NCBI GenBank assembly: GCA_964396025.1
Contig: CAYNBT010000001.1
Coordinates: 109,271 to 173,270 of the forward strand
DNA: 64,000 nt
Direction of reading: 5' to 3'
Source: an uncultured Candidatus Saccharibacteria bacterium
Lineage (GTDB): Bacteria > Patescibacteriota > WWE3 > UBA101185 > UBA10185
In this document: positions 6,189-54,108 of the stretch, piece by piece
Numbering within the stretch: the stretch's first letter is position 1
Layout of the letters: each line of letters starts with the position of its first letter
Notes under the pieces: generated by a model
Database searches by the model: none
Seen by the model: only the letters and a program-made list of their open reading frames with translations
Told to the model about the DNA's origin: nothing
Program-made: the position numbers and the translations under genes

Positions 6189-7247
6189 TCATGCCTTACC
6201 TATATCGGTGTAAATATCTACAAATCGTTGTGCTCTATTATGATATGTGTGATCTGCAAGAACTCTGAGTCTGCCTGCTTCTGATATGGCGCGGCGTTCC
6301 TCAGGATGTTTCATGTAGTAATCTATCTTTTCACGCCATTCTTGAGGTGTTTTTGCCATCACTATCTCTTTTTCCTGTACAAAGTATTTACCGATACATT
6401 CTACATAATCACTAACTTCAAAGCCTCCACAGGCTGGGATTTTGAAGGTTCTTTCGTTGCAATCTTTGCCAAATTCTCTCTGATACTCTTCATGAATGTT
6501 TAGTGAAATTTTGGACGAACTATAAATTCTACGTTCATCATCTAGACCTAGGGTTGGTTTTTGAATATCTTTTACTACAGGCAGATTGAAGTATTTTCCA
6601 AAGCGAGACACCCATCCCATAAGTCTATCGTAACTAGTCCAATCTTGTCCTAAGAGCATTACTTTATATTTTTCCCGTAACGGGAAAACATGGTTTTTTA
6701 TGAATGCTCTTTTTTCTGGCAGAAACGTACCCAAAAAAGAAATATCACAGTCAAACTTGTTAGAAAAATCATAATAATGTTTTGTTTTATCCGCCGCTAA
6801 TGGGATTGTGTAGTATGGATAGCCTGTGGCTTCTTGAAATCCTTCCATTCTGGGATCCCCCTGCTCTGATACCGTATAGTACACGTCACCAAAATTCCCT
6901 GATGTTATCAGGTCAACATATTCTGCATTCGTTTTTAATCCTGGGGTTTCATTAAGGCGTAATGAGCTAAAAGGAGAAGTCCAAAAAGGTGTGTTTACAA
7001 ATATCTTGGTGCCATTTTGCTTCATTTTTTTCACGCCATCAAAATTCAAGAATTTCAAAACATAACTGTTCATGCTAGTAAAAAAAATGTGCGGAGCAAA
7101 CTCCTCCACTACCGAGATCTGCGAATCGTTTGCTGTAAGAAACCTAAAGTTATGCCCGAGAGCTAAGAAAGCATTCTTGTAACCCTCAATGATAGTACGA
7201 TTTGCATAAACAGTATTTAAATGTGGGACATAATACAAAATATTCAT
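6189..7247 (-). CDS. CgeB-like glycosyltransferase (DUF3880 + Glyco_trans_1_2-like C-terminus)
   Basis: C-terminal …KTPQEWREKIDYYMKHPEERRAISEAGRLRVLADHTYHNRAQRF… is typical of the CgeB / GT1_2 family. Start set at MNILYYVPH. Confidence 0.5.
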   Translation of the reverse strand: MNILYYVPHLNTVYANRTIIEGYKNAFLALGHNFRFLTANDSQISVVEEFAPHIFFTSMNSYVLKFLNFDGVKKMKQNGTKIFVNTPFWTSPFSSLRLNETPGLKTNAEYVDLITSGNFGDVYYTVSEQGDPRMEGFQEATGYPYYTIPLAADKTKHYYDFSNKFDCDISFLGTFLPEKRAFIKNHVFPLREKYKVMLLGQDWTSYDRLMGWVSRFGKYFNLPVVKDIQKPTLGLDDERRIYSSSKISLNIHEEYQREFGKDCNERTFKIPACGGFEVSDYVECIGKYFVQEKEIVMAKTPQEWREKIDYYMKHPEERRAISEAGRLRVLADHTYHNRAQRFVDIYTDIGKA

Positions 7248-8419
7248 TGAGTGGCGTCTAGAGGTATACCCAAGTAAGAGCAAATATCGGTACAGATGTT
7301 CTGATAGTCAAAGCTCTTAGCATATTTAAGAGCGTTGTTTCTATATAACGCATTAACATCTCCCCGCATCAAGTACTCAAGTTTGGTTGCAATATCAAGC
7401 GGGTCCTCTGTAATGATCAAACCACATTTACTTTCTTCAATCTCACGTGCGTTCCAAGGTATATCCGTAAGTAACACAGGCACGCCGCAGCCCAAGTATG
7501 TTTTAACTTTTCCAGGATCCGCATAATACGACCACGTATCAAGTTCTTTCATATAAGGTGCAATGGCGACGCTTGAATTGGCCACCTCAACTTCCAAGTC
7601 CTTGTTCTCTTTGATTTTACCTAAAAACTCACATCTAGAAGAAAATGAGGATTTTGCTGCGAGTGCTTCGAGGTCTTTTCTGAAACTACCATCCCCGATT
7701 ATTTTGAATTTTAGATTCGGAACCTTTTTTACTAACTCGGGAAGAGCTTGAAGAATAAGCTGCACCCCCTGCTTTGGAATCAAATGTCCCATAAAAACCA
7801 GGGTGTTCTTTTCACAACTTTCGTAGGGTATAACTTTGATTCTACTCAACCACATGCCGTAAGGTACTACCCTATGTTTCTTGTAATCAGTATCCTTAAC
7901 ACCCAAAAACTCCTTACGGGCTTCCTTCATTCTAGGAGATAGATCCCACATCTCATCTACGCGTGTGTAGCTACTTGTGTTAATAAATTCATATATCTTG
8001 TGTTTGAGTTTTGAAGAAAACCTTTGCGTCGGTACAAAATCCACTGCCCAAAATACGGTTTTGCTTACCAAACCAAGAGCTCTAGCCACATTACCAAACA
8101 AAGAGCATAAGCCATCCATACCTATCAAACAATCCCACTTACGCCCCGAGGTGATTATCCAAGATAACGTGTAAAAAAACTCTTTAAGATATAGGAGAGG
8201 TTCGGGCAGCATCTTAAAATCCACGCTGCGATGCTCTTTGTATAGTGCTCCATTTTTATACCAATTATAATAACTACACCTGTCTTTGGCATCGGAAAAG
8301 CTGTGCATGATATGCAAAACTTCGCATTTGGTGTGTTTGTTCAAGAAAATCACCAAATCATCATCCATCTGTGGCAAGTATTTGTGGGAAACTATTAGAA
8401 GCTTCGAGTTACTCTGCAT
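7244..8419 (-). CDS. Glycosyltransferase family 4 (GT-B, Glycos_transf_1)
   Basis: FMGHLIPKQGVQLILQALPEL…KFKIIGDGSFRKDLEALAA…GCGVPVLLTD (EX7E-type region). Start trimmed to [14 protein letters not shown]. Confidence 0.75.
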   Translation of the reverse strand: MQSNSKLLIVSHKYLPQMDDDLVIFLNKHTKCEVLHIMHSFSDAKDRCSYYNWYKNGALYKEHRSVDFKMLPEPLLYLKEFFYTLSWIITSGRKWDCLIGMDGLCSLFGNVARALGLVSKTVFWAVDFVPTQRFSSKLKHKIYEFINTSSYTRVDEMWDLSPRMKEARKEFLGVKDTDYKKHRVVPYGMWLSRIKVIPYESCEKNTLVFMGHLIPKQGVQLILQALPELVKKVPNLKFKIIGDGSFRKDLEALAAKSSFSSRCEFLGKIKENKDLEVEVANSSVAIAPYMKELDTWSYYADPGKVKTYLGCGVPVLLTDIPWNAREIEESKCGLIITEDPLDIATKLEYLMRGDVNALYRNNALKYAKSFDYQNICTDICSYLGIPLDATQ

Positions 8420-17912: not shown

Positions 17913-18825
17913 AAAGCACTCCCCCGATCAAACTTACAACTAAACGCATTAAGTGATAGATAAGCGATCCGGTAAGAGCAACAGAAGATGTTACGCCTAC
18001 AACTGACAGGAGCTGAATGTATAAAGCGTCCTGCACACCTAATCCATTTAAGGATGGTATAAAAAAGCTAGCTAAGGTTATAACAGGGAAAACAAAAAGG
18101 GCATGAAATAATGGCAGCGTATACCCCAATGCTAAAAATATAAAATATTGCGTTGAAACAGAGAGAAGCTGCACAATAAACGAAGTTAGAAGTGCCATGA
18201 GTACTACATTGTAGTTGTTTTTGTACTCCAAAAATGAGTCGTAAAGGGCACCGATTCTGGAAACTTTATTTCTTAACAGATACATTGCATAAAACCCACT
18301 AAAAGCCGCAATCCAAAATCCAAAGATCAAAAGAAAATAATATAAAACTACAAAGAACGGACTTTCCTTATACATTTGCGGTATGAAATCCCACCAAAAA
18401 GAATTTGTTTTGATAAAGCCAAGGTACGAAATCAACACCAAGGAAACCATACCAGTGAATCTTTCCATAAATGTTGCAGTAAACGCATGAGTTTTACTAC
18501 CAATCTTGCCACCAAGTGCCACAATCTTGTAAACATCTCCACCGATGCTTGTTGGCATAAAATTATTGAAAAACGATCCCACAAAATAAAGCTTTGTAAG
18601 ATAGCGCAAAGAAATTTGGGCAGATCCCTCAAATATCAATAAGTTCTTCCATCTCAAAGACGAAACTACATAATTCAAAATCAGAAAAATAAGGATAAAA
18701 GGTATATACGCCGGGTTCAGTTTAGAAACGCCCAGCAGAATTTGTTTTGAATCTATTGAACTGAATATGTAGTAAAACAGCCCACACGTAACAATTAAAC
18801 GTACAACAAGTTTTTTGTACTTCAT
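17890..18825 (-). CDS. Flippase-like membrane protein (LPG_synthase_TM / UPF0104 family)
   Basis: About 8 TM helices, 311 aa; N-terminal …SLRWKNLL… pattern typical of the lysyl-PG-synthase TM-like 'flippase-like domain' proteins that accompany GT2 genes. Confidence 0.5.
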   Translation of the reverse strand: MKYKKLVVRLIVTCGLFYYIFSSIDSKQILLGVSKLNPAYIPFILIFLILNYVVSSLRWKNLLIFEGSAQISLRYLTKLYFVGSFFNNFMPTSIGGDVYKIVALGGKIGSKTHAFTATFMERFTGMVSLVLISYLGFIKTNSFWWDFIPQMYKESPFFVVLYYFLLIFGFWIAAFSGFYAMYLLRNKVSRIGALYDSFLEYKNNYNVVLMALLTSFIVQLLSVSTQYFIFLALGYTLPLFHALFVFPVITLASFFIPSLNGLGVQDALYIQLLSVVGVTSSVALTGSLIYHLMRLVVSLIGGVLYAGTKSD

Positions 18826-48566: not shown

Positions 48567-49024
48567 TGTATGTAGTCCCCTTGGATAGGCTGAACTAACC
48601 CTACCAAATCCTTTGCCTGCATTACCACCGATATCGTATGAGATCCAGCATTAAAGGCGACCATATCCTTTTGATATATCCTAAGATCAAAATAAGTCTT
48701 GATGCCCATAAGATTTCCAAAAGGAGGAATGCTACCTACTTCTAAACCTGTGAGTTCTTTAATTTCTTGTTTAGTCGCCATTCTCAAATCCTTTATACCT
48801 GCTGAGTCTTTTACTTTCTTAAAACTTAAACGAGTATCCCCTGGAATTGCTACGAGTATTGGTGACTTATCAGCCATTAATATCAGCGCTTTAACTCCCA
48901 TGGATAAACTAGAATCACGCACTTGAGCGGCTTCCTCGCTTGTATATACAGGTGTATGCTCAATTTTTTGATATTGCACTTTGTGATGATCTAAAGTACT
49001 TAGTATACGTTCCAATACATTCAT
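48563..49024 (-). CDS. YbaK/ProX-type aminoacyl-tRNA deacylase
   Basis: 153 aa; …MGVKALILMADKSPILVAIPGDTRLSFKKV…GSIPPFGN… is the YbaK editing-domain pattern. Confidence 0.65.
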   Translation of the reverse strand: MNVLERILSTLDHHKVQYQKIEHTPVYTSEEAAQVRDSSLSMGVKALILMADKSPILVAIPGDTRLSFKKVKDSAGIKDLRMATKQEIKELTGLEVGSIPPFGNLMGIKTYFDLRIYQKDMVAFNAGSHTISVVMQAKDLVGLVQPIQGDYIQ

Positions 49025-49033
49025 AGAGTTACA

Positions 49034-50713
49034 TTAACAAATCCTCATATCCTTAACAATTATGTTTAATTTCTCGCGACCATTGAATACATTTTTAGAT
49101 AGTGTGTAAGCAATGTCTACTCTACTTCCCATGCTCAGGTTTGCTGCAAGGTCCTTACCATCAAAGTAGATTGCCTTTTGAGTAATTCCGTTATCATACA
49201 AACTTAAGGATAAGTGATTGTTTTCTTTACCAACAAGGTCAAAGCCTGCAACACCTACCTGCAAACAAGCAAAAAGCGGCTCGGGATTCCCTACACCATA
49301 CGGGCGTAAACTATCTACTTCAGAAAAAAAGTCGAGACTAAGTACATCTAGCGGAATACTACAATCAATCTCTAAAGAAGGCACAAACACTTCAGCCGGA
49401 TATGTTGTTGATATCAGAGTGTTAAGCGAGTTTTTTAATTGTTCAATATTTTCGGTTTTAATGGAAAATCCAGCCGCCATAGGATGCCCACCCAAACTCT
49501 CAAAAAGATGCTCAAACTTTCTAAGCGCCTCTATGATATTAATCCCACTGATAGACCTTACCGAACCCTTGCCGTGACCATCAGTTATACTTATCACAAC
49601 AGAGGGTCTGTAATACTTCTGAACCAATTTAGACGCCACCAAACCAATTATCCCTTCGTGGAAATCTTTATGGGAAGTCACAATAACACTAGGCAGATCA
49701 GCATCCTCATTGTTGTAAGCCAAATCATACATTTCCAAAGTTTTGTTTTGACGGTCTAGGTTTATGGAATTCAGCTTGTGAGCTAGCTCCAATGCCTTAG
49801 ACTCATTACTCTCTAGTAAAAGTTCTACAGCAGCAGAGGCATCTAAAAGCCTGCCAGTAGCATTCAAACGAGGCCCAACCACCCAGCCTAGCTGATATGT
49901 AGAAAGATCTCCTAACTTTGTGCCGGAAACTTCAAACAATTTACGTAATCCAAGTAGGGGATTTGTGTTTAGAATTTCCAAACCGTCTCGCACTAAGACC
50001 CTATTTATGCCAGTCAAAGGTTGCAAGTCTGTGATTGTAGCGATGCATGCTAATGACAACAGTTGGGGATCTTTGGAGCCCAATACTTTGCTCAAAACCC
50101 AAGAAATTCCGGAACCAACCATTTGATCGCACCAAACAATACAATCAGCCTGTGGGAGTTCTGAGGGCCTCTGGTGATGATCTGTAACAATTACCTGAAA
50201 TCCTTGAGATTTTAGATGTGCAACTTCAGCCACTGCGGTGATGCCAGTATCTACCGTAATCAAAAGTGCGGATTTAGCGTTGAATTTTTCGCCAAGTAGC
50301 TTCTCTACATCTGCAATAGACCCAAGTGATAAACCATACCCATGGTCAAATCGGTTTGGAATAAAATAAGCGCATTTTGTATACCCCAACTCCTTTGTTA
50401 TGGTTGAATACAAAATTGCTGTTGCACAAATGCCATCTGCATCATAATCGCCATAAATCAAAATGGGTGTATCTTGGCTAATTGCATGTTGGATCTGTTT
50501 TTTTGCAAGGGATAATGATTCCAAAAACTCCCGCGGAAGCCTTTTTAAAAGTTCTGATATGGAGGGTGGATTCAAAAACAACTCTTTATCTTCTTGAGTA
50601 TTGATATTTCTATTCTGGAGAAGAATGTCTACAATATTCTTCTCATCCGAATAACTACTGCGTATGTTCCAGTTTTTAGTCATGCCAAGATAAGTTACAT
50701 CTTTACGCCGCAC
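49034..50713 (-). CDS. recJ: Single-stranded-DNA-specific exonuclease RecJ
   Basis: DHH motifs …ILIYGDYDADGICATAIL…, …VDTGITA…, …IVTDHHQ…; DHHA1-like C-terminal region. Confidence 0.85.
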   Translation of the reverse strand: MRRKDVTYLGMTKNWNIRSSYSDEKNIVDILLQNRNINTQEDKELFLNPPSISELLKRLPREFLESLSLAKKQIQHAISQDTPILIYGDYDADGICATAILYSTITKELGYTKCAYFIPNRFDHGYGLSLGSIADVEKLLGEKFNAKSALLITVDTGITAVAEVAHLKSQGFQVIVTDHHQRPSELPQADCIVWCDQMVGSGISWVLSKVLGSKDPQLLSLACIATITDLQPLTGINRVLVRDGLEILNTNPLLGLRKLFEVSGTKLGDLSTYQLGWVVGPRLNATGRLLDASAAVELLLESNESKALELAHKLNSINLDRQNKTLEMYDLAYNNEDADLPSVIVTSHKDFHEGIIGLVASKLVQKYYRPSVVISITDGHGKGSVRSISGINIIEALRKFEHLFESLGGHPMAAGFSIKTENIEQLKNSLNTLISTTYPAEVFVPSLEIDCSIPLDVLSLDFFSEVDSLRPYGVGNPEPLFACLQVGVAGFDLVGKENNHLSLSLYDNGITQKAIYFDGKDLAANLSMGSRVDIAYTLSKNVFNGREKLNIIVKDMRIC

Positions 50714-50744
50714 TTGACAAATGCCCCATAGTTGTGTAATATTG

Positions 50745-51300
50745 AATAATCTTATTCACCTGCTGAGTTTCCCAGAGGAGGCCCCATGGCCGGAACACTA
50801 GCGGGAAAACGGCGCAAAACCTGGCATCCACGGCACGATTTTAGATTGTGCACGGGAGCCTTAGGTATTGCAGCTCTTTGCTTTTATCCTAGGTAAGGGT
50901 AAAGAGCGGCACGCAATACCTAAGGCACCCGGTTTAGCAGCGCTGCAGAGTTTGGGAGTGAGTGTATGTTAAAAACTGCATTCTAGCGGTCTGCCCGCCT
51001 TGAACAAGCCCATCACCTTCGCTTGTTCTCGCGTCACGCAAAACGTGACGACAGGGCCCAAAAACCGCTACCGACATGCGCCAGAACCCGGCGTACGGAC
51101 TCCCAAACTCATCCCTCAGAATGATCAGACTCGTATGCAGTATAAATATACGAGATCTGTATTATTTAGGGCGGAAGTAAGCAAAAAAGGAATGTGCGCA
51201 TGCACCTCCTACCTTTCCTTGCTGCCCGCTTCCGCCCTGTCGTCCTAGGTACTGAAAATCTTAGTCCACCTGACTAAAATCTTTCGGTACCTAGGGCGAT
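50745..51300. ncRNA. GC-rich, ORF-free, densely base-paired region: candidate structured ncRNA of unknown class
   Basis: Local GC is far above the window background. No credible ORF on either strand. Multiple perfect helices: 50859-50871/50913-50925 (13 bp), 50948-50959/51099-51110 (12 bp) enclosing a 3-way junction (50984-90/51064-70, 51002-09/51021-28, 51032-38/51044-50), 51168-77/51229-38 (10 bp), 51244-52/51287-95 (9 bp). Strand not resolved. Confidence 0.4.
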
Positions 51301-51772
51301 AAACATTCTTACAGCCTTAAATTTCCCTAAACAAATTCATTTACATAAATCCTATAGTATGATATGCTCTTTTGTATTCAAGGAGTAAACATTGCCAATC
51401 TTCAAAAAATTGGCCACAATTGAATATGCTAAAAAGGGTTACGCGGTGTTAATACCGGGTCTCCCTAATCACTCCTCCTTGATAGCTTGTGTGACACCCA
51501 AGCGCAAACCTTGCTCAAAGCTGGGGTTTGCCTAGAATCAAGGCTTTCCAAGAAGTAACTGGAAAGCTGCGATTCACCACGGATGTCCACCGGCTAATCG
51601 TTGTGCACTTACGTGCACGTGCCCCTAACCTTGGAGTTTTAGTTATCCGCAAGCGGCTGCAGCCTAAATGTGGAGATACGAATGACAAAGAGGCTTTATA
51701 TAAGTAGGGTGCTAAACGAAGGGGTGAAAGTTAGCAACAAAAAATGCATAACTGCCCCTTAAGAACTTTCTC
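51301..51772 (+). ncRNA. Second hairpin-rich non-coding stretch, possibly a plus-strand ncRNA ending at the 51773-51815 terminator
   Basis: No ORF of 60 aa or more on either strand. Perfect hairpins at 51504-10/51525-31, 51543-50/51560-67 and 51603-08/51613-18. Ends in a strong plus-strand intrinsic terminator, although all flanking genes are on the minus strand. Confidence 0.25.
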
Positions 51773-51815
51773 AGCCTAAAATAGATATTATCTTTTTAGG
51801 CTGTTTTCATTTTTT
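51773..51815 (+). terminator. Intrinsic terminator AGCCTAAAA-N11-TTTTTAGGCT followed by GTTTTCATTTTTTCTTT
   Basis: 9-bp stem plus a long T-tract on the plus strand. The same hairpin lies 10 nt downstream of the secF stop on the minus strand but is not followed by a U-tract there. Confidence 0.55.
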
Positions 51816-52730
51816 CTTTGATTTTTTTGTGGAAATATACTGTTCCCAATAAACCAAAATTGGTGCTGCCGTAAAAATGCTGGAGTACGTTCCAGAGACT
51901 ATACCTATTAAGAGAGCAAATACAAAATCCCTTATACTTTCCCCCCCTAACATATACATAGAAAATAGCGTGATGATAACTGTTAACGAAGTGGCCATGG
52001 ATCTACCCAACGTTTCAGTAATAGAATAATCCACAATCTCCGCAAATTTAAAACTTTTAGGAAGTTTAGAAAGGTTTTCACGAATTCTATCAAAAACAAC
52101 AATAGTATCATGGACCGAGAATCCTATTACAGTAAGCACTGCCGTTATAAATAAGGCGTTGATTTCCGTTCCATAAAAATGTCCCAAAATAGAGAATATG
52201 CCTATAATCATCAGGGCGTCGTGCAACATAGCTATAATGGCAGAGGCACCAAAACGCACACTCGAGTAAGGTTGAGGAATGTTTCTAAAGGAATAAGCTA
52301 TATATGCCACAATAGCAAAAGAAGCAACCAGAACTGCGAGGAAGGCGTTTTTTGTGGTTTCAGTGCCTACTGTTGGTCCCACTGTTTCTACACTAACCTG
52401 CTGAGTTTTTGCAAATGTGGTTTCAATGGCCTTAGAAACTTGATCTGATGCTTTTGATTCCAGCGGATTGGTTTTTAGTGTTAAAGTTCCGTCGTCCAAA
52501 GAAAACTCCTTGATTTGAACACCTTCTTGTTTTCCAAGCGTTTCCCTGAACTTAGTAATTTGGGTATCTGCGGAAGATTCAACGGTATAAACAAATACAG
52601 ACCCGCCAGTAAAATCAATAGATAAGTTTAATCCAAAAATCAAAAGAGAAATTATTCCCGGGATCAATAAAGCCAAGGACAGCGTTATAAAGTATTTTCC
52701 ATATTTAATTATTTGCATCTTGCCCTCCAT
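51807..52730 (-). CDS. secF: Protein translocase subunit SecF
   Basis: 6-TM SecF pattern …SIDFTGGSVFVY…; start trimmed to an internal Met to remove overlap with secD. Confidence 0.85.
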   Translation of the reverse strand: MEGKMQIIKYGKYFITLSLALLIPGIISLLIFGLNLSIDFTGGSVFVYTVESSADTQITKFRETLGKQEGVQIKEFSLDDGTLTLKTNPLESKASDQVSKAIETTFAKTQQVSVETVGPTVGTETTKNAFLAVLVASFAIVAYIAYSFRNIPQPYSSVRFGASAIIAMLHDALMIIGIFSILGHFYGTEINALFITAVLTVIGFSVHDTIVVFDRIRENLSKLPKSFKFAEIVDYSITETLGRSMATSLTVIITLFSMYMLGGESIRDFVFALLIGIVSGTYSSIFTAAPILVYWEQYISTKKSKKK

Positions 52731-54108
52731 CCTTATACCTTGGCACAACATTGAATGCCTGAATTAATGTTCTGGTAGCAAAAATCGAAGTAAAAAGCGA
52801 CAACATAATGCCTATGGACAAAGTAAGAGCAAATCCACGGATGATTCCATTTCCAAAGTGAAAAAGTATAAAGGCAGTAATCAATGAGGATACGTTTGAA
52901 TCCTTAATCGAGTGCCAAGCACGATCAAACCCAAACTTAATCGCCATGGTAGCGGGAACACCCCAGCGAATCTCCTCTTTAATCCTTTCAAAAATAAGTA
53001 TATTTGCATCTACGGCCATGCCCACAGACAAGATAAAACCAGCAATACCAGGTAGAGTTAAAACTACAGGCACGATTTTGAAAATTGTGATTGTAAGAGC
53101 TGTATACAAGATTAGGGCAACATTCGCAATCAGGCCCAATCTTCCGTAAAAAACTAACATAAAGAGCATAACAAAGAACATTCCAACTAGACCTGCAAAC
53201 ATGCTTTTTTCTACAGAATCCTGCCCTAGTGTTGCACCAACAGTTTTCTGTTCTAGAATCTTGACGGGTATAGGCAGAGCACCAGCCCGAATTTGTAAGC
53301 TGAGCGCGTTGGCGGACTTCACATCAAAATTCCCAGTGATAACAGGGTCCTGAAACACGCCGTCAGCCAAATCAGCACTTACCACAGGCATTGAAAGAGG
53401 CGAAGCCTCCTGATCCAAAAATAAAGCAACTGGTTTACCAACATTCTTTTTTGCTAAGTTTGCAAATTTTTTCTTACCCTCTGGGGTGAACAAAAGCTGT
53501 ATTTGAGGAGCCGAGGATCCCCCAGAACTTAAATCGCTAGAAAAAACCACTGTAGCACCACGGAGATCGGCACCTGATAAATCTGTTGATTTCCAAGCCG
53601 TAGGATTCATATAAAACTCGTAGAATTTATCTTCCGACCATTCAGAAGCATTAGTGAGCTCTTTGAATTCTAGTTGAGCAGTTTGCCCAATTAACGATAC
53701 TGCAGCCTGTGTGTCTGTAATCCCGGGAATTTCCACAATGATCCTGTATTCATCGCCTACTTTAGCCGTGTTTATAACAGGTTCCGTCACCCCAAGATAA
53801 TTCACACGACGCTCTATCACCTCTTTAGCCGACTCCAAAGCAGACTGTTGATCATCAACAGCTATTTTTGACATATCGGTGCCCAAAACAACTCTTATGC
53901 CACCTTCAAGATCTAGACCCTTTTTCAACTCCCTTAGATCTATGTTAAAACTTCCACCAAAAAACGAAGCGAAGTAACCGCCAATGGAAGTATCTATATT
54001 GAGACCGAATTTGTTGAATTTAATTGTTAGAACAGGAAGTGCTGCCAAAATGGAAATGCAGAATATTGTTGTGAGAAGGCCTAGCCTAAAATAGATGTTT
54101 TTGAACAT
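52705..54108 (-). CDS. secD: Protein translocase subunit SecD
   Basis: N-terminal TM, large periplasmic domain, C-terminal 5-TM bundle with …LPGIAGFILSVGMAVDANILIFERIKEE…. Confidence 0.85.
   Translation of the reverse strand: MFKNIYFRLGLLTTIFCISILAALPVLTIKFNKFGLNIDTSIGGYFASFFGGSFNIDLRELKKGLDLEGGIRVVLGTDMSKIAVDDQQSALESAKEVIERRVNYLGVTEPVINTAKVGDEYRIIVEIPGITDTQAAVSLIGQTAQLEFKELTNASEWSEDKFYEFYMNPTAWKSTDLSGADLRGATVVFSSDLSSGGSSAPQIQLLFTPEGKKKFANLAKKNVGKPVALFLDQEASPLSMPVVSADLADGVFQDPVITGNFDVKSANALSLQIRAGALPIPVKILEQKTVGATLGQDSVEKSMFAGLVGMFFVMLFMLVFYGRLGLIANVALILYTALTITIFKIVPVVLTLPGIAGFILSVGMAVDANILIFERIKEEIRWGVPATMAIKFGFDRAWHSIKDSNVSSLITAFILFHFGNGIIRGFALTLSIGIMLSLFTSIFATRTLIQAFNVVPRYKDGGQDANN

Follow-up and report, generated by a model that had tools for sequence, protein, structure and literature searches.

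A strongly structured, putatively transcribed non-coding insertion between recJ and secF of a WWE3 bacterium

Between recJ and secF, two housekeeping genes of an uncultured bacterium of candidate division WWE3, lies a block of GC-rich DNA that encodes no recognisable protein and forms one hairpin after another. The question that it raises is whether it specifies an RNA, and if so of what kind. The block, called the element here, occupies positions 50750-51300 of the window (the whole 64,000-nucleotide (nt) stretch of contig CAYNBT010000001.1 that was analysed), is the most structured stretch of that window, and forms the 5' half of 1.1 kb of DNA inserted between these two genes. An earlier note, made from the sequence alone, had considered RNase P RNA, a novel large structured non-coding RNA (ncRNA), transfer-messenger RNA (tmRNA) and the relic of a mobile element. 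The second of these still affords the best reading: the insertion is taken, tentatively, to be an orphan, independently transcribed multi-hairpin ncRNA unit on the + strand, for which we infer a function. Its structure, its strand, its transcription signals and its status as an insertion can be read directly; it has no coding potential and falls into no known family.

Fold, strand and transcription signals

The GC content of 200-nt windows over 50700-51199 is 0.49-0.555, compared with 0.33-0.45 in the flanks and 0.383 for the window as a whole, a shift as sharp as the earlier note had described. The + strand of 50740-51305 has a minimum free energy of -253.3 kcal/mol (dinucleotide shuffles, -163.1 +/- 7.3; z = -12.3). 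The - strand of the same segment reaches -228.4 kcal/mol (z = -6.4), so that the + strand folds better by 25 kcal/mol. When fold energy is regressed on GC content over 850 windows of 300 nt, both strands included, the top six outliers all fall inside 50851-51450. The element contains at least 12 uninterrupted helices of 7-19 bp each, where at least nine of 7-13 bp had been proposed; all those previously named are present, including the 12-bp helix 50948-59/51099-110 and the hairpins that it encloses, and their coordinates were correct to within one base. "Perfectly base-paired" proved to be an overstatement, since about 74% of the bases of 50759-51300 are paired. The unpaired ones are mostly A (40%) and C (35%), with G at 9%.

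In the predicted fold, six self-contained stem-loop domains (A-F) stand side by side over 50759-51300, and no convincing long-range closing helix joins them. In the + strand helices, G·U pairing occurs 19 times and an A·C 1x1 mismatch only once. (The significance of this count is that a DNA palindrome decaying neutrally would yield G·U and A·C in about equal numbers.) The 19:1 excess and the 25 kcal/mol gain thus argue for a structure that has been under selection in a + strand transcript or, at the least, took shape in one.

Signals for such a transcript can be discerned at both ends of the insert. The promoter-like site at 50714-42 matches the consensus at 10 of 12 positions and is the best site in the region scanned, and at 51772-51810 a 14-bp stem is followed, in the + strand reading, by UUUUCAUUUUUU. 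Read on the - strand, the same region has the tail GAGAAAG and is for this reason not a terminator for secF. Judged by these signals, the insert has the appearance of a ~1.06-kb transcription unit that converges with secDF, with a possible second, internal start at ~51375 from a weaker site at 51340-68. Its parts are listed here, helices and signals being those predicted.

50714..50742, + strand: promoter-like site of sigma-70 type, TTGACA-17 nt-TAATAT; predicted start ~50749-50751, divergent from recJ
50759..50805, + strand: stem-loop A, 17 bp in four segments
50833..50931, + strand: stem-loop B, an 8-bp hairpin (50833-51) and then a long hairpin of 34 bp (4+14+16, with four G·U)
50948..51110, + strand: domain C, multi-branch with four branches, closed by the perfect 12-bp helix 50948-59/51099-110
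51119..51167, + strand: stem-loop D, 19 bp in three segments, 9-nt loop
51168..51238, + strand: stem-loop E, 11-bp GC-rich base
51239..51300, + strand: stem-loop F, 19+2+6 bp, three G·U, apical loop CACCU; the 19-bp stem is 51239-57/51282-300
51301..51377, + strand: AT-rich spacer, holding the second, weaker promoter-like site TTTACA-17-TATGCT (51340-68)
51378..51765, + strand: second non-coding part, less strongly structured, containing an unconserved open reading frame (ORF) of 47 aa
51772..51810, + strand: intrinsic terminator, stem CAGCCUAAAA/UUUUAGGCUG with inner AGAU/AUCU, then UUUUCAUUUUUU; overlaps the secF stop codon

Stem-loop A is assembled from helices 50759-64/50800-05, 50766-68/50797-99, 50769-72/50792-95 and 50780-83/50788-91; AGGAGG is left accessible in its internal loop CAGAGGA, and a 36-aa ORF has its ATG in the apical hairpin. 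In stem-loop B a 14+16-bp hairpin spans 50858-50926; AGGUAAGGGU-AAAGAGCG, on the 3' strand of the long hairpin, resembles J12/13 of RNase P RNA. The closing helix of domain C surrounds a hairpin at 50960-83, a branch at 50984-51070 (made up of hairpin 51002-28, whose loop is CCAUCACCUUC, and hairpin 51032-50), and a hairpin at 51071-98 whose loop and 3' stem form the sequence CAGAACCCGGCGUA, similar to conserved region V (CR-V) of RNase P RNA. In stem-loop E, GCAC precedes the internal loop CUCCUACCU; joined, the two give CACCUCCU, which is like an anti-Shine-Dalgarno sequence. The arms of stem-loop F are CCUAGGUA/UACCUAGG, and no U-tract follows them. The second part, 51378-51765, has z = -6.7 on the + strand and -5.1 on the - strand. 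Within it, UCAAGGAG (51378-85, the Shine-Dalgarno (SD) sequence of the 47-aa ORF) can pair perfectly over 8 bp with CUCCUUGA (51475-82, inside that ORF), an arrangement of the SD-sequestering kind.

The recurring motif pointed out previously is in place as CCTAGGTA at 50888 and 51244 and, inverted, at 51288; the supposed occurrence at 50859 is instead CCTTAGGTA, with one extra base. (The RNase P-like sequences CAGAACCCGG and AGGTAAGGGT start at 51082 and 50891, respectively.) Three of the window's six CCTAGG sites are found within the 560-nt element (50888, 51244 and 51290), where ~0.07 would be expected. All three are in hairpin arms, in the extended form CCUAGGUA, and could be protein-binding sites or the trace of hairpin duplication. 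The search for repeat copies that the earlier note had called for finds no second copy of the element in the 64-kb window (blastn, word size 7). The element contains no tandem repeats or tandem array, its sole direct repeat being one 11-nt pair, and no terminal inverted repeats (TIRs) or target-site duplication spanning the unit were found.

Hairpins of this sort might conceivably serve as single-stranded DNA, for example as a single-strand replication origin or as the DNA on which an integrated rolling-circle element recombines or transposes. Such a structure would be strand-specific and would tolerate G·T pairs, and several arms are perfect palindromes without wobble (for example the 14-bp stem 50858-71/50913-26); TAGCG, present twice, recalls the CS-6 motif of ssoA-type origins. 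This explanation is nevertheless very improbable. The gap and its surroundings contain neither a gene for a Rep, relaxase, transposase or integrase nor a remnant of one, plasmid and phage collections yield no similarity, and the framing of the element by promoter and terminator fits a transcript.

Protein-coding potential is lacking, as had been claimed. The largest ORF in the gap has 82 aa and no homologue among 1.84 billion representatives, none of 10 ORFs has a Pfam match, and a database search found no homologue of the 47-aa ORF. (A degraded HicB/HicA pair at 51392-51707, considered on account of a likeness of the 47-aa ORF to HicB antitoxins, gained no Pfam support even with the frames joined by hand.) The first ORF past the predicted transcription start is the one of 36 aa (MAGTLAGKRRKTWHPRHDFRLCTGALGIAALCFYPR; 50786-50896, + strand), with GAGGAGG four bases before its ATG; by way of this ORF the RNA could have a dual function.

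If the unit operates as an RNA, its transcription would start at the promoter 50714-42 and end at the terminator 51772-51810, antisense to the secDF-recJ operon. The first ~550 nt (50759-51300) would fold as six independent stem-loop domains, with helices of up to 34 bp, and the resulting stable multi-hairpin RNA may act in trans as a regulatory or scaffold RNA. Its exposed C-rich loops (AUCACCUUC, CACCU and CACCUCCU) could pair with purine-rich ribosome-binding regions, and its long duplexes could be processed by RNase III. Exposed segments that resemble the 3' tail of 16S rRNA are AUCACCUUC at 51012-20, CACCU at 51267-71 and CACCUCCU at 51203-10. There are four occurrences of CACCU (~0.5 expected), two of them as fully exposed apical loops and one beside a CCUCCU internal loop. 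Anti-SD pairing as the mechanism is speculative.

The RNase P question and other known families

Neither tRNA genes nor Rfam families at gathering threshold were found in the whole window, 1-64000 (Rfam 15, 0 matches); the Rfam check that had been proposed thus ends with no family assignment, and the element appears to belong to no described RNA family among those searched. Extending the search of the region to E<=10 brings up eukaryotic miRNA models, which pick up the long hairpin and are noise, and RNaseP_bact_a (RF00010). At that threshold there is no match to tmRNA, and ARAGORN reports none in the window, so that this earlier proposal has been dropped. OLE, ROOL, GOLLD, raiA and HEARO RNAs have no Rfam match at gathering or, with permissive filters, at E<=10. 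Group I and group II introns, riboswitches and T-box leaders have no Rfam match either (the next gene on the + side, secF, is on the opposite strand), and the absence of any tandem array disposes of CRISPR and TIGR tandem guide arrays.

RNase P RNA calls for a longer discussion. Could the element be this organism's rnpB, radically diverged and expanded, with CAGAACCCGGCGUA as J2/4 and the 3' strand of P4, then P1, and with hairpin 50853-50931 as a reduced specificity (S) domain that has lost P12-P14? RF00010 is the best-scoring bacterial family, with a match of 10.6 bits (E = 0.41 over 4227 families) at 50951-51111 on the + strand. The alignment takes the helix UUUGGGAGU/ACUCCCAAA as P1 and CAGAACCCGGCGUA as CR-V, and skips the remainder of the model. 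The CR-V consensus, ACAGAACCCGGCUUA immediately 5' of the P1 3' strand, has its counterpart in CCAGAACCCGGCGUA at 51081-95, which is followed by CGG and then by the 3' strand of the 12-bp helix. The resemblance to CR-V and the P4 3' strand noted previously accordingly holds at the level of the motif (13 of 15 bases). The best two exact matches to E. coli rnpB, CAGAACCCGGC (nt 348-358 of its RNA, M1) and AGGTAAGGGT (M1 169-178), are in universally conserved regions and collinear, and AAGAGCG and CACCCGG follow the M1-like motifs in order. (The M1 sequence used is 100% identical to the annotated rnpB.) Two collinear 10-mers in conserved regions turned up in 3 of 20,000 dinucleotide shuffles of the element; region boundaries were set from background knowledge and the test was designed after the motifs had been seen, and the result is for that reason treated as p of roughly 1e-3, not 1e-4. 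RNase P RNAs that escape the Rfam cut-offs are, moreover, known from candidate phyla radiation (CPR) bacteria: in about one-third of complete CPR genomes they score below them, and some lack P12-P14 and P18 and need manual refolding (Lui et al. 2021, PMC8172020). In AT-rich genomes, rnpB itself has the look of a stable, GC-rich RNA gene driven by a promoter of its own.

Against all this, 10.6 bits falls far short of the RF00010 gathering score of 100. The match was not recovered in two other sub-range searches, and once the 3' strand of the P1-like helix was excluded from the search RF00010 gave no alignment at all, remaining silent upstream. CR-I, which comprises the A-rich J3/4 and the 5' strand of P4 (GGAAAGUCC with a bulged U) and makes the catalytic P4 helix with CR-V, is absent from the element, as are GGAAAGTCC and GAGGAAAG; the earlier note had likewise failed to find this strand. 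The sole complement to CCCGGCGUA is UGUGC(A)CGGG at 50847-56, which makes 9 bp with a bulge, overlaps the local 8-bp hairpin 50833-51, was not found by RF00010, and by our own estimate would be expected about once by chance. We know of no RNase P RNA that dispenses with P4, and to our knowledge CR-I and CR-V are kept even in the most reduced of these RNAs.

The topology is also wrong. Of the conserved-region motifs, the CR-V-like one alone lies inside the P1-like helix 50948-59/51099-110, and the CR-III-like motif at 50891, which would belong to the S domain, sits 5' of that helix instead of being nested within it. Both motifs are strands of perfect local helices: AGGUAAGGGU-AAAG and AAGAGCG match M1 169-178 and 192-198, but form the 3' strand of a 16-bp stem, whereas in RNase P RNA CR-II and CR-III (J11/12 and J12/13) are unpaired modules within the P5-P7-P10/11 stack; no CR-II equivalent was seen, and the GGCGUA of the CR-V-like motif also forms a local 6-bp hairpin with UGCGCC. 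Threading by hand onto the RNase P fold gave P1 (UGAGUUU 50764-70/AAACUCA 51105-11), P2 (GGCGCA 50811-16/UGCGCC 51077-82) and P4, all of them short, outcompeted by local helices and not beyond chance. The combination of S-domain-like motifs gave no relative in JGI metagenomes.

A warning about motif-spotting comes from the window's well-supported LPG_synthase_TM gene. Inside it, on the - strand, stand an 11-mer identical to CR-I (AGGAAAGTCCG, 18358-18368) and, 350 nt away, the 11-mer ACTGAACCCGG; ACTGAACCCGGCGTA, at 18708-18721, has the 12-mer GAACCCGGCGTA in common with the element. Since these lie inside a protein gene, M1 matches of similar length evidently arise here by chance, and RNase P conserved-region matches of such length call for caution wherever they are met.

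The earlier note's reserve about RNase P identity was therefore well placed, given the score, the missing CR-I and the topology. Read from its sequence, the element is not a canonical RNase P RNA and fails the tests that define the family, its RNase P-like motifs being relics or coincidence. A relationship by descent is possible. That the element is the organism's diverged rnpB is distinctly unlikely; were it so, the rule of a universal P4 core sequence would be broken.

An insertion at a variable junction

The flanking genes are the following.

49034..50713, - strand: recJ; likely true start at the ATG at 50683 (MTKNWNI)
51807..52751, - strand: secF

RecJ has DHH, DHHA1 and RecJ_OB domains; on the other side lies SecF, with SecD beyond. 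The copy of RecJ in the database has 549 aa, is 100% identical and begins MTKNWNI, for which reason the start is probably at 50683. Its next relatives, at 50-55% identity, are from candidate division WWE3 (Patescibacteria). The neighbourhood consists of tightly packed housekeeping genes: gltX, a two-component pair, S11 peptidase, ybaK, recJ, secF, secD, a 193-aa protein, DUF3048, DUF4446, release factor, clpB and radC. At 1093 nt and 46% GC, the recJ-secF gap is by far the largest and most GC-rich non-coding stretch of the window. The earlier delimitation of a 560-nt core between recJ and secF stands, but the gene-free gap is larger, running from 50684 or 50714 to 51806 (~1.12 kb if recJ starts at 50683).

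At the recJ edge, over 50684-50745, promoter-like hexamers stand back to back, the + strand TTGACA overlapping a - strand TTGTCA-17-TAACTT that stops 8 nt short of the recJ start codon (ATG at 50683). The arrangement hints at a near-leaderless transcript of recJ arising at the edge of the insertion.

Comparison was made with nine WWE3 recJ loci; apart from the identical copy, the database has no relative above 55% RecJ identity. The order DUF3048, 193-aa protein, secD, secF, recJ, aspS, (ybaK), S11 peptidase is conserved in all nine. In five of them secF and recJ overlap or are 2-42 nt apart. Three have a gap of 420-760 nt with unrelated small ORFs, on the opposite strand in the loci labelled L087 and L101, and in L088 a same-strand ORF of 186 aa; in the remaining one no secF gene was called and the junction DNA was not compared. 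From these comparisons, the element is a lineage-specific insertion at an insertion-tolerant junction.

Related observations concern the neighbouring junction. The secF-recJ and recJ-aspS junctions of WWE3 are both insertion hotspots with orphan small ORFs (L087 3578-4000, L088 3240-4000, L101 2942-3500, L086 5398-6615); those on the opposite strand in L101 include small hydrophobic proteins, and no Pfam family is on record for the hotspot ORFs. In L081, at 6700-7350 (and likewise in L082), a GC-rich ORF-free gap of 650 nt lies directly downstream of recJ, before aspS; it has a fold z of about -4 on both strands, no Rfam match, no RNase P signal and no similarity to the element. Although aspS is found downstream of recJ, before ybaK or the S11 peptidase, in 9 of 9 relatives, it is cleanly absent at window 49024-49034, recJ and ybaK being 9 nt apart; in this genome it has been lost from its usual place. 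A reduced T-box-like leader, which retains the GGUGGUACCG box and a terminator but little of stem I, precedes aspS in WWE3 relatives (L081 7450-7600, L083 ~6750-6870); it scores 18 bits on RF00230, below the Rfam gathering threshold of 93.

A junction so tolerant of insertion could have retained a non-functional relic of foreign or mobile DNA, in which case the RNase P-like and anti-SD-like motifs would be meaningless. The element is absent in all nine relatives, whose junctions are empty or hold unrelated small ORFs; its GC content is 8-17 points above that of the genome; no collection searched contains a homologue; L081 carries an unrelated GC-rich ORF-free gap of 650 nt beside recJ; and CCTAGG is enriched (3 of the 6 sites of the window in 560 nt) in hairpin arms that are palindromic. 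A relic is nonetheless unlikely. The 19:1 preponderance of G·U over A·C, with the 25 kcal/mol advantage of the + strand, is the mark of strand-specific structure, the insert is framed by a near-consensus promoter and a terminator in the correct orientation, and there is no TIR, target-site duplication, transposase or integrase remnant, or second copy in the 64 kb.

The convergent orientation admits a different account, in which the unit acts in cis, as an antisense or insulator cassette that uncouples recJ from secDF in an ancestral secDF-recJ operon. It would do so by transcriptional interference, by formation of double-stranded RNA with operon read-through, and by the provision of a new recJ promoter at its left edge, the hairpins mainly stabilising the RNA or blocking read-through. 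In relatives, secF and recJ are 0-42 nt apart or overlapping on one strand and look co-transcribed; the insert is transcribed, on the predicted signals, towards secF and ends on its stop codon; the back-to-back hexamers at 50714-20 are, on our reading, directly upstream of the recJ ATG at 50683; and in two relatives (L087 and L101) the corresponding gap is occupied by small opposite-strand genes. Such a cassette is improbable all the same: 550 nt of elaborate strand-specific structure would not be needed for it, and the recJ-side promoter, which the promoter scan did not report, has a -10 hexamer with only 3 of 6 matches.

The ncRNA unit that is preferred here also has to face a body of evidence that weighs against it. 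The element is missing from the secF-recJ junction of the nine WWE3 relatives (blastn, nhmmer and Smith-Waterman), and nothing similar to it was found in 0.9 Mb of loci examined (nhmmer, blastn) or in phage and plasmid collections (blastn). Three motif patterns gave only chance matches in viral contigs. A scan of JGI metagenomes for GGTAAGGGT-N0-3-AAGAGCG-N5-35-CACCCGG gave two matches, both in GC-rich coding DNA and due to chance. With no homologue found, neither conservation nor covariation is on record. A junction that is a hotspot for unrelated insertions could simply hold foreign, non-adaptive DNA, and the transcript is a predicted one. The predicted loops include no GNRA or UNCG tetraloops or other hallmarks of tertiary motifs. 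As to the regulatory mechanism, the loop motifs were noticed after the fact, and a strong SD sequence precedes only ~10 of 50 window genes, which weakens the anti-SD idea and, in particular, the notion of a global anti-SD sponge.

Some of these points carry less weight than others. Lack of conservation in relatives, which the earlier note had put forward as a finding that would speak against an RNA gene, is what the comparison returned, but it is weak evidence, since no relative is closer than 55% RecJ identity. (Motif scans of genome collections returned nothing when based on RecJ alone and, when alignment-based, generic RecJ motifs and a single WWE3-like locus.) The earlier argument from position, that a place between housekeeping genes implies function, has likewise lost force with the variability of the junction among the nine relatives. 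On the other side, CPR bacteria have tiny genomes with almost no spare DNA. An idle 1.1-kb GC-rich structured unit is unlikely in such a genome, the window being packed gene to gene.

A bolder proposal is that the element is a functional RNA that has no described family, either as the founding member of a new ncRNA class in Patescibacteria, large and built as a hairpin array, or as an RNase P RNA in which CR-I and the P4 5' strand have been replaced, which would be unprecedented. This is doubtful. Should the element turn out to be a regulatory or scaffold RNA of a new kind, it would join a short list of large ncRNAs from the CPR, a huge radiation of uncultivated bacteria.

Comparison with known systems

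With class A RNase P RNA (RF00010) the element shares CAGAACCCGGCGUA (13 of 15 bases of CR-V) directly before the 3' strand of a long helix, in the manner of P4-3'/P1-3', as well as AGGUAAGGGU-AAAG, which is like J12/13, and the general character of a stand-alone GC-rich RNA gene in an AT-rich genome. It differs in having no CR-I, no A-rich J3/4, no P4 5' strand with bulged U, and no recognisable P2, P3, P15 or CR-IV, and in consisting of ~550 nt of side-by-side hairpins in place of a nested two-domain fold.

REP/BIME, BOX and Correia-type repeats and miniature inverted-repeat transposable elements (MITEs) are similarly intergenic, with palindromic arms, a recurring core (here CCTAGG) and a junction that varies between lineages. 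The element, in contrast, has no second copy in 64 kb, is five- to tenfold their length, has neither TIR nor target duplication, and combines a strand-specific G·U asymmetry with its own promoter and terminator, as predicted.

OLE, ROOL, GOLLD, raiA and HEARO/omega RNAs are comparable in size (~0.5-1 kb), in being free of ORFs and strongly structured by prediction, and in coming from uncultivated lineages. Unlike them, the element is not beside tRNAs, prophage genes or IscB/TnpB-type genes, and lacks long-range closing helices and GNRA-type loops; those families are defined by covariation across many members, whereas the element is a single sequence.

Staphylococcus aureus RNAIII and the C-rich-loop RNAs of Firmicutes (RsaE/RoxS type) offer an analogy that is functional only. 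No sequence or Rfam similarity connects the element with them, its host is a Patescibacterium, and its loops read CACCU(CC), not UCCC. Like RNAIII, it can be thought of as a lineage-restricted RNA of ~0.5 kb with its own promoter and terminator, many autonomous stem-loops and duplexes suited to RNase III, perhaps with a counterpart of hld in the short ORF with a strong SD near its 5' end (36 aa, 50786-50896). With RNAIII, RsaE and RoxS alike it has in common C-rich, G-poor loops complementary to SD-like sequences.

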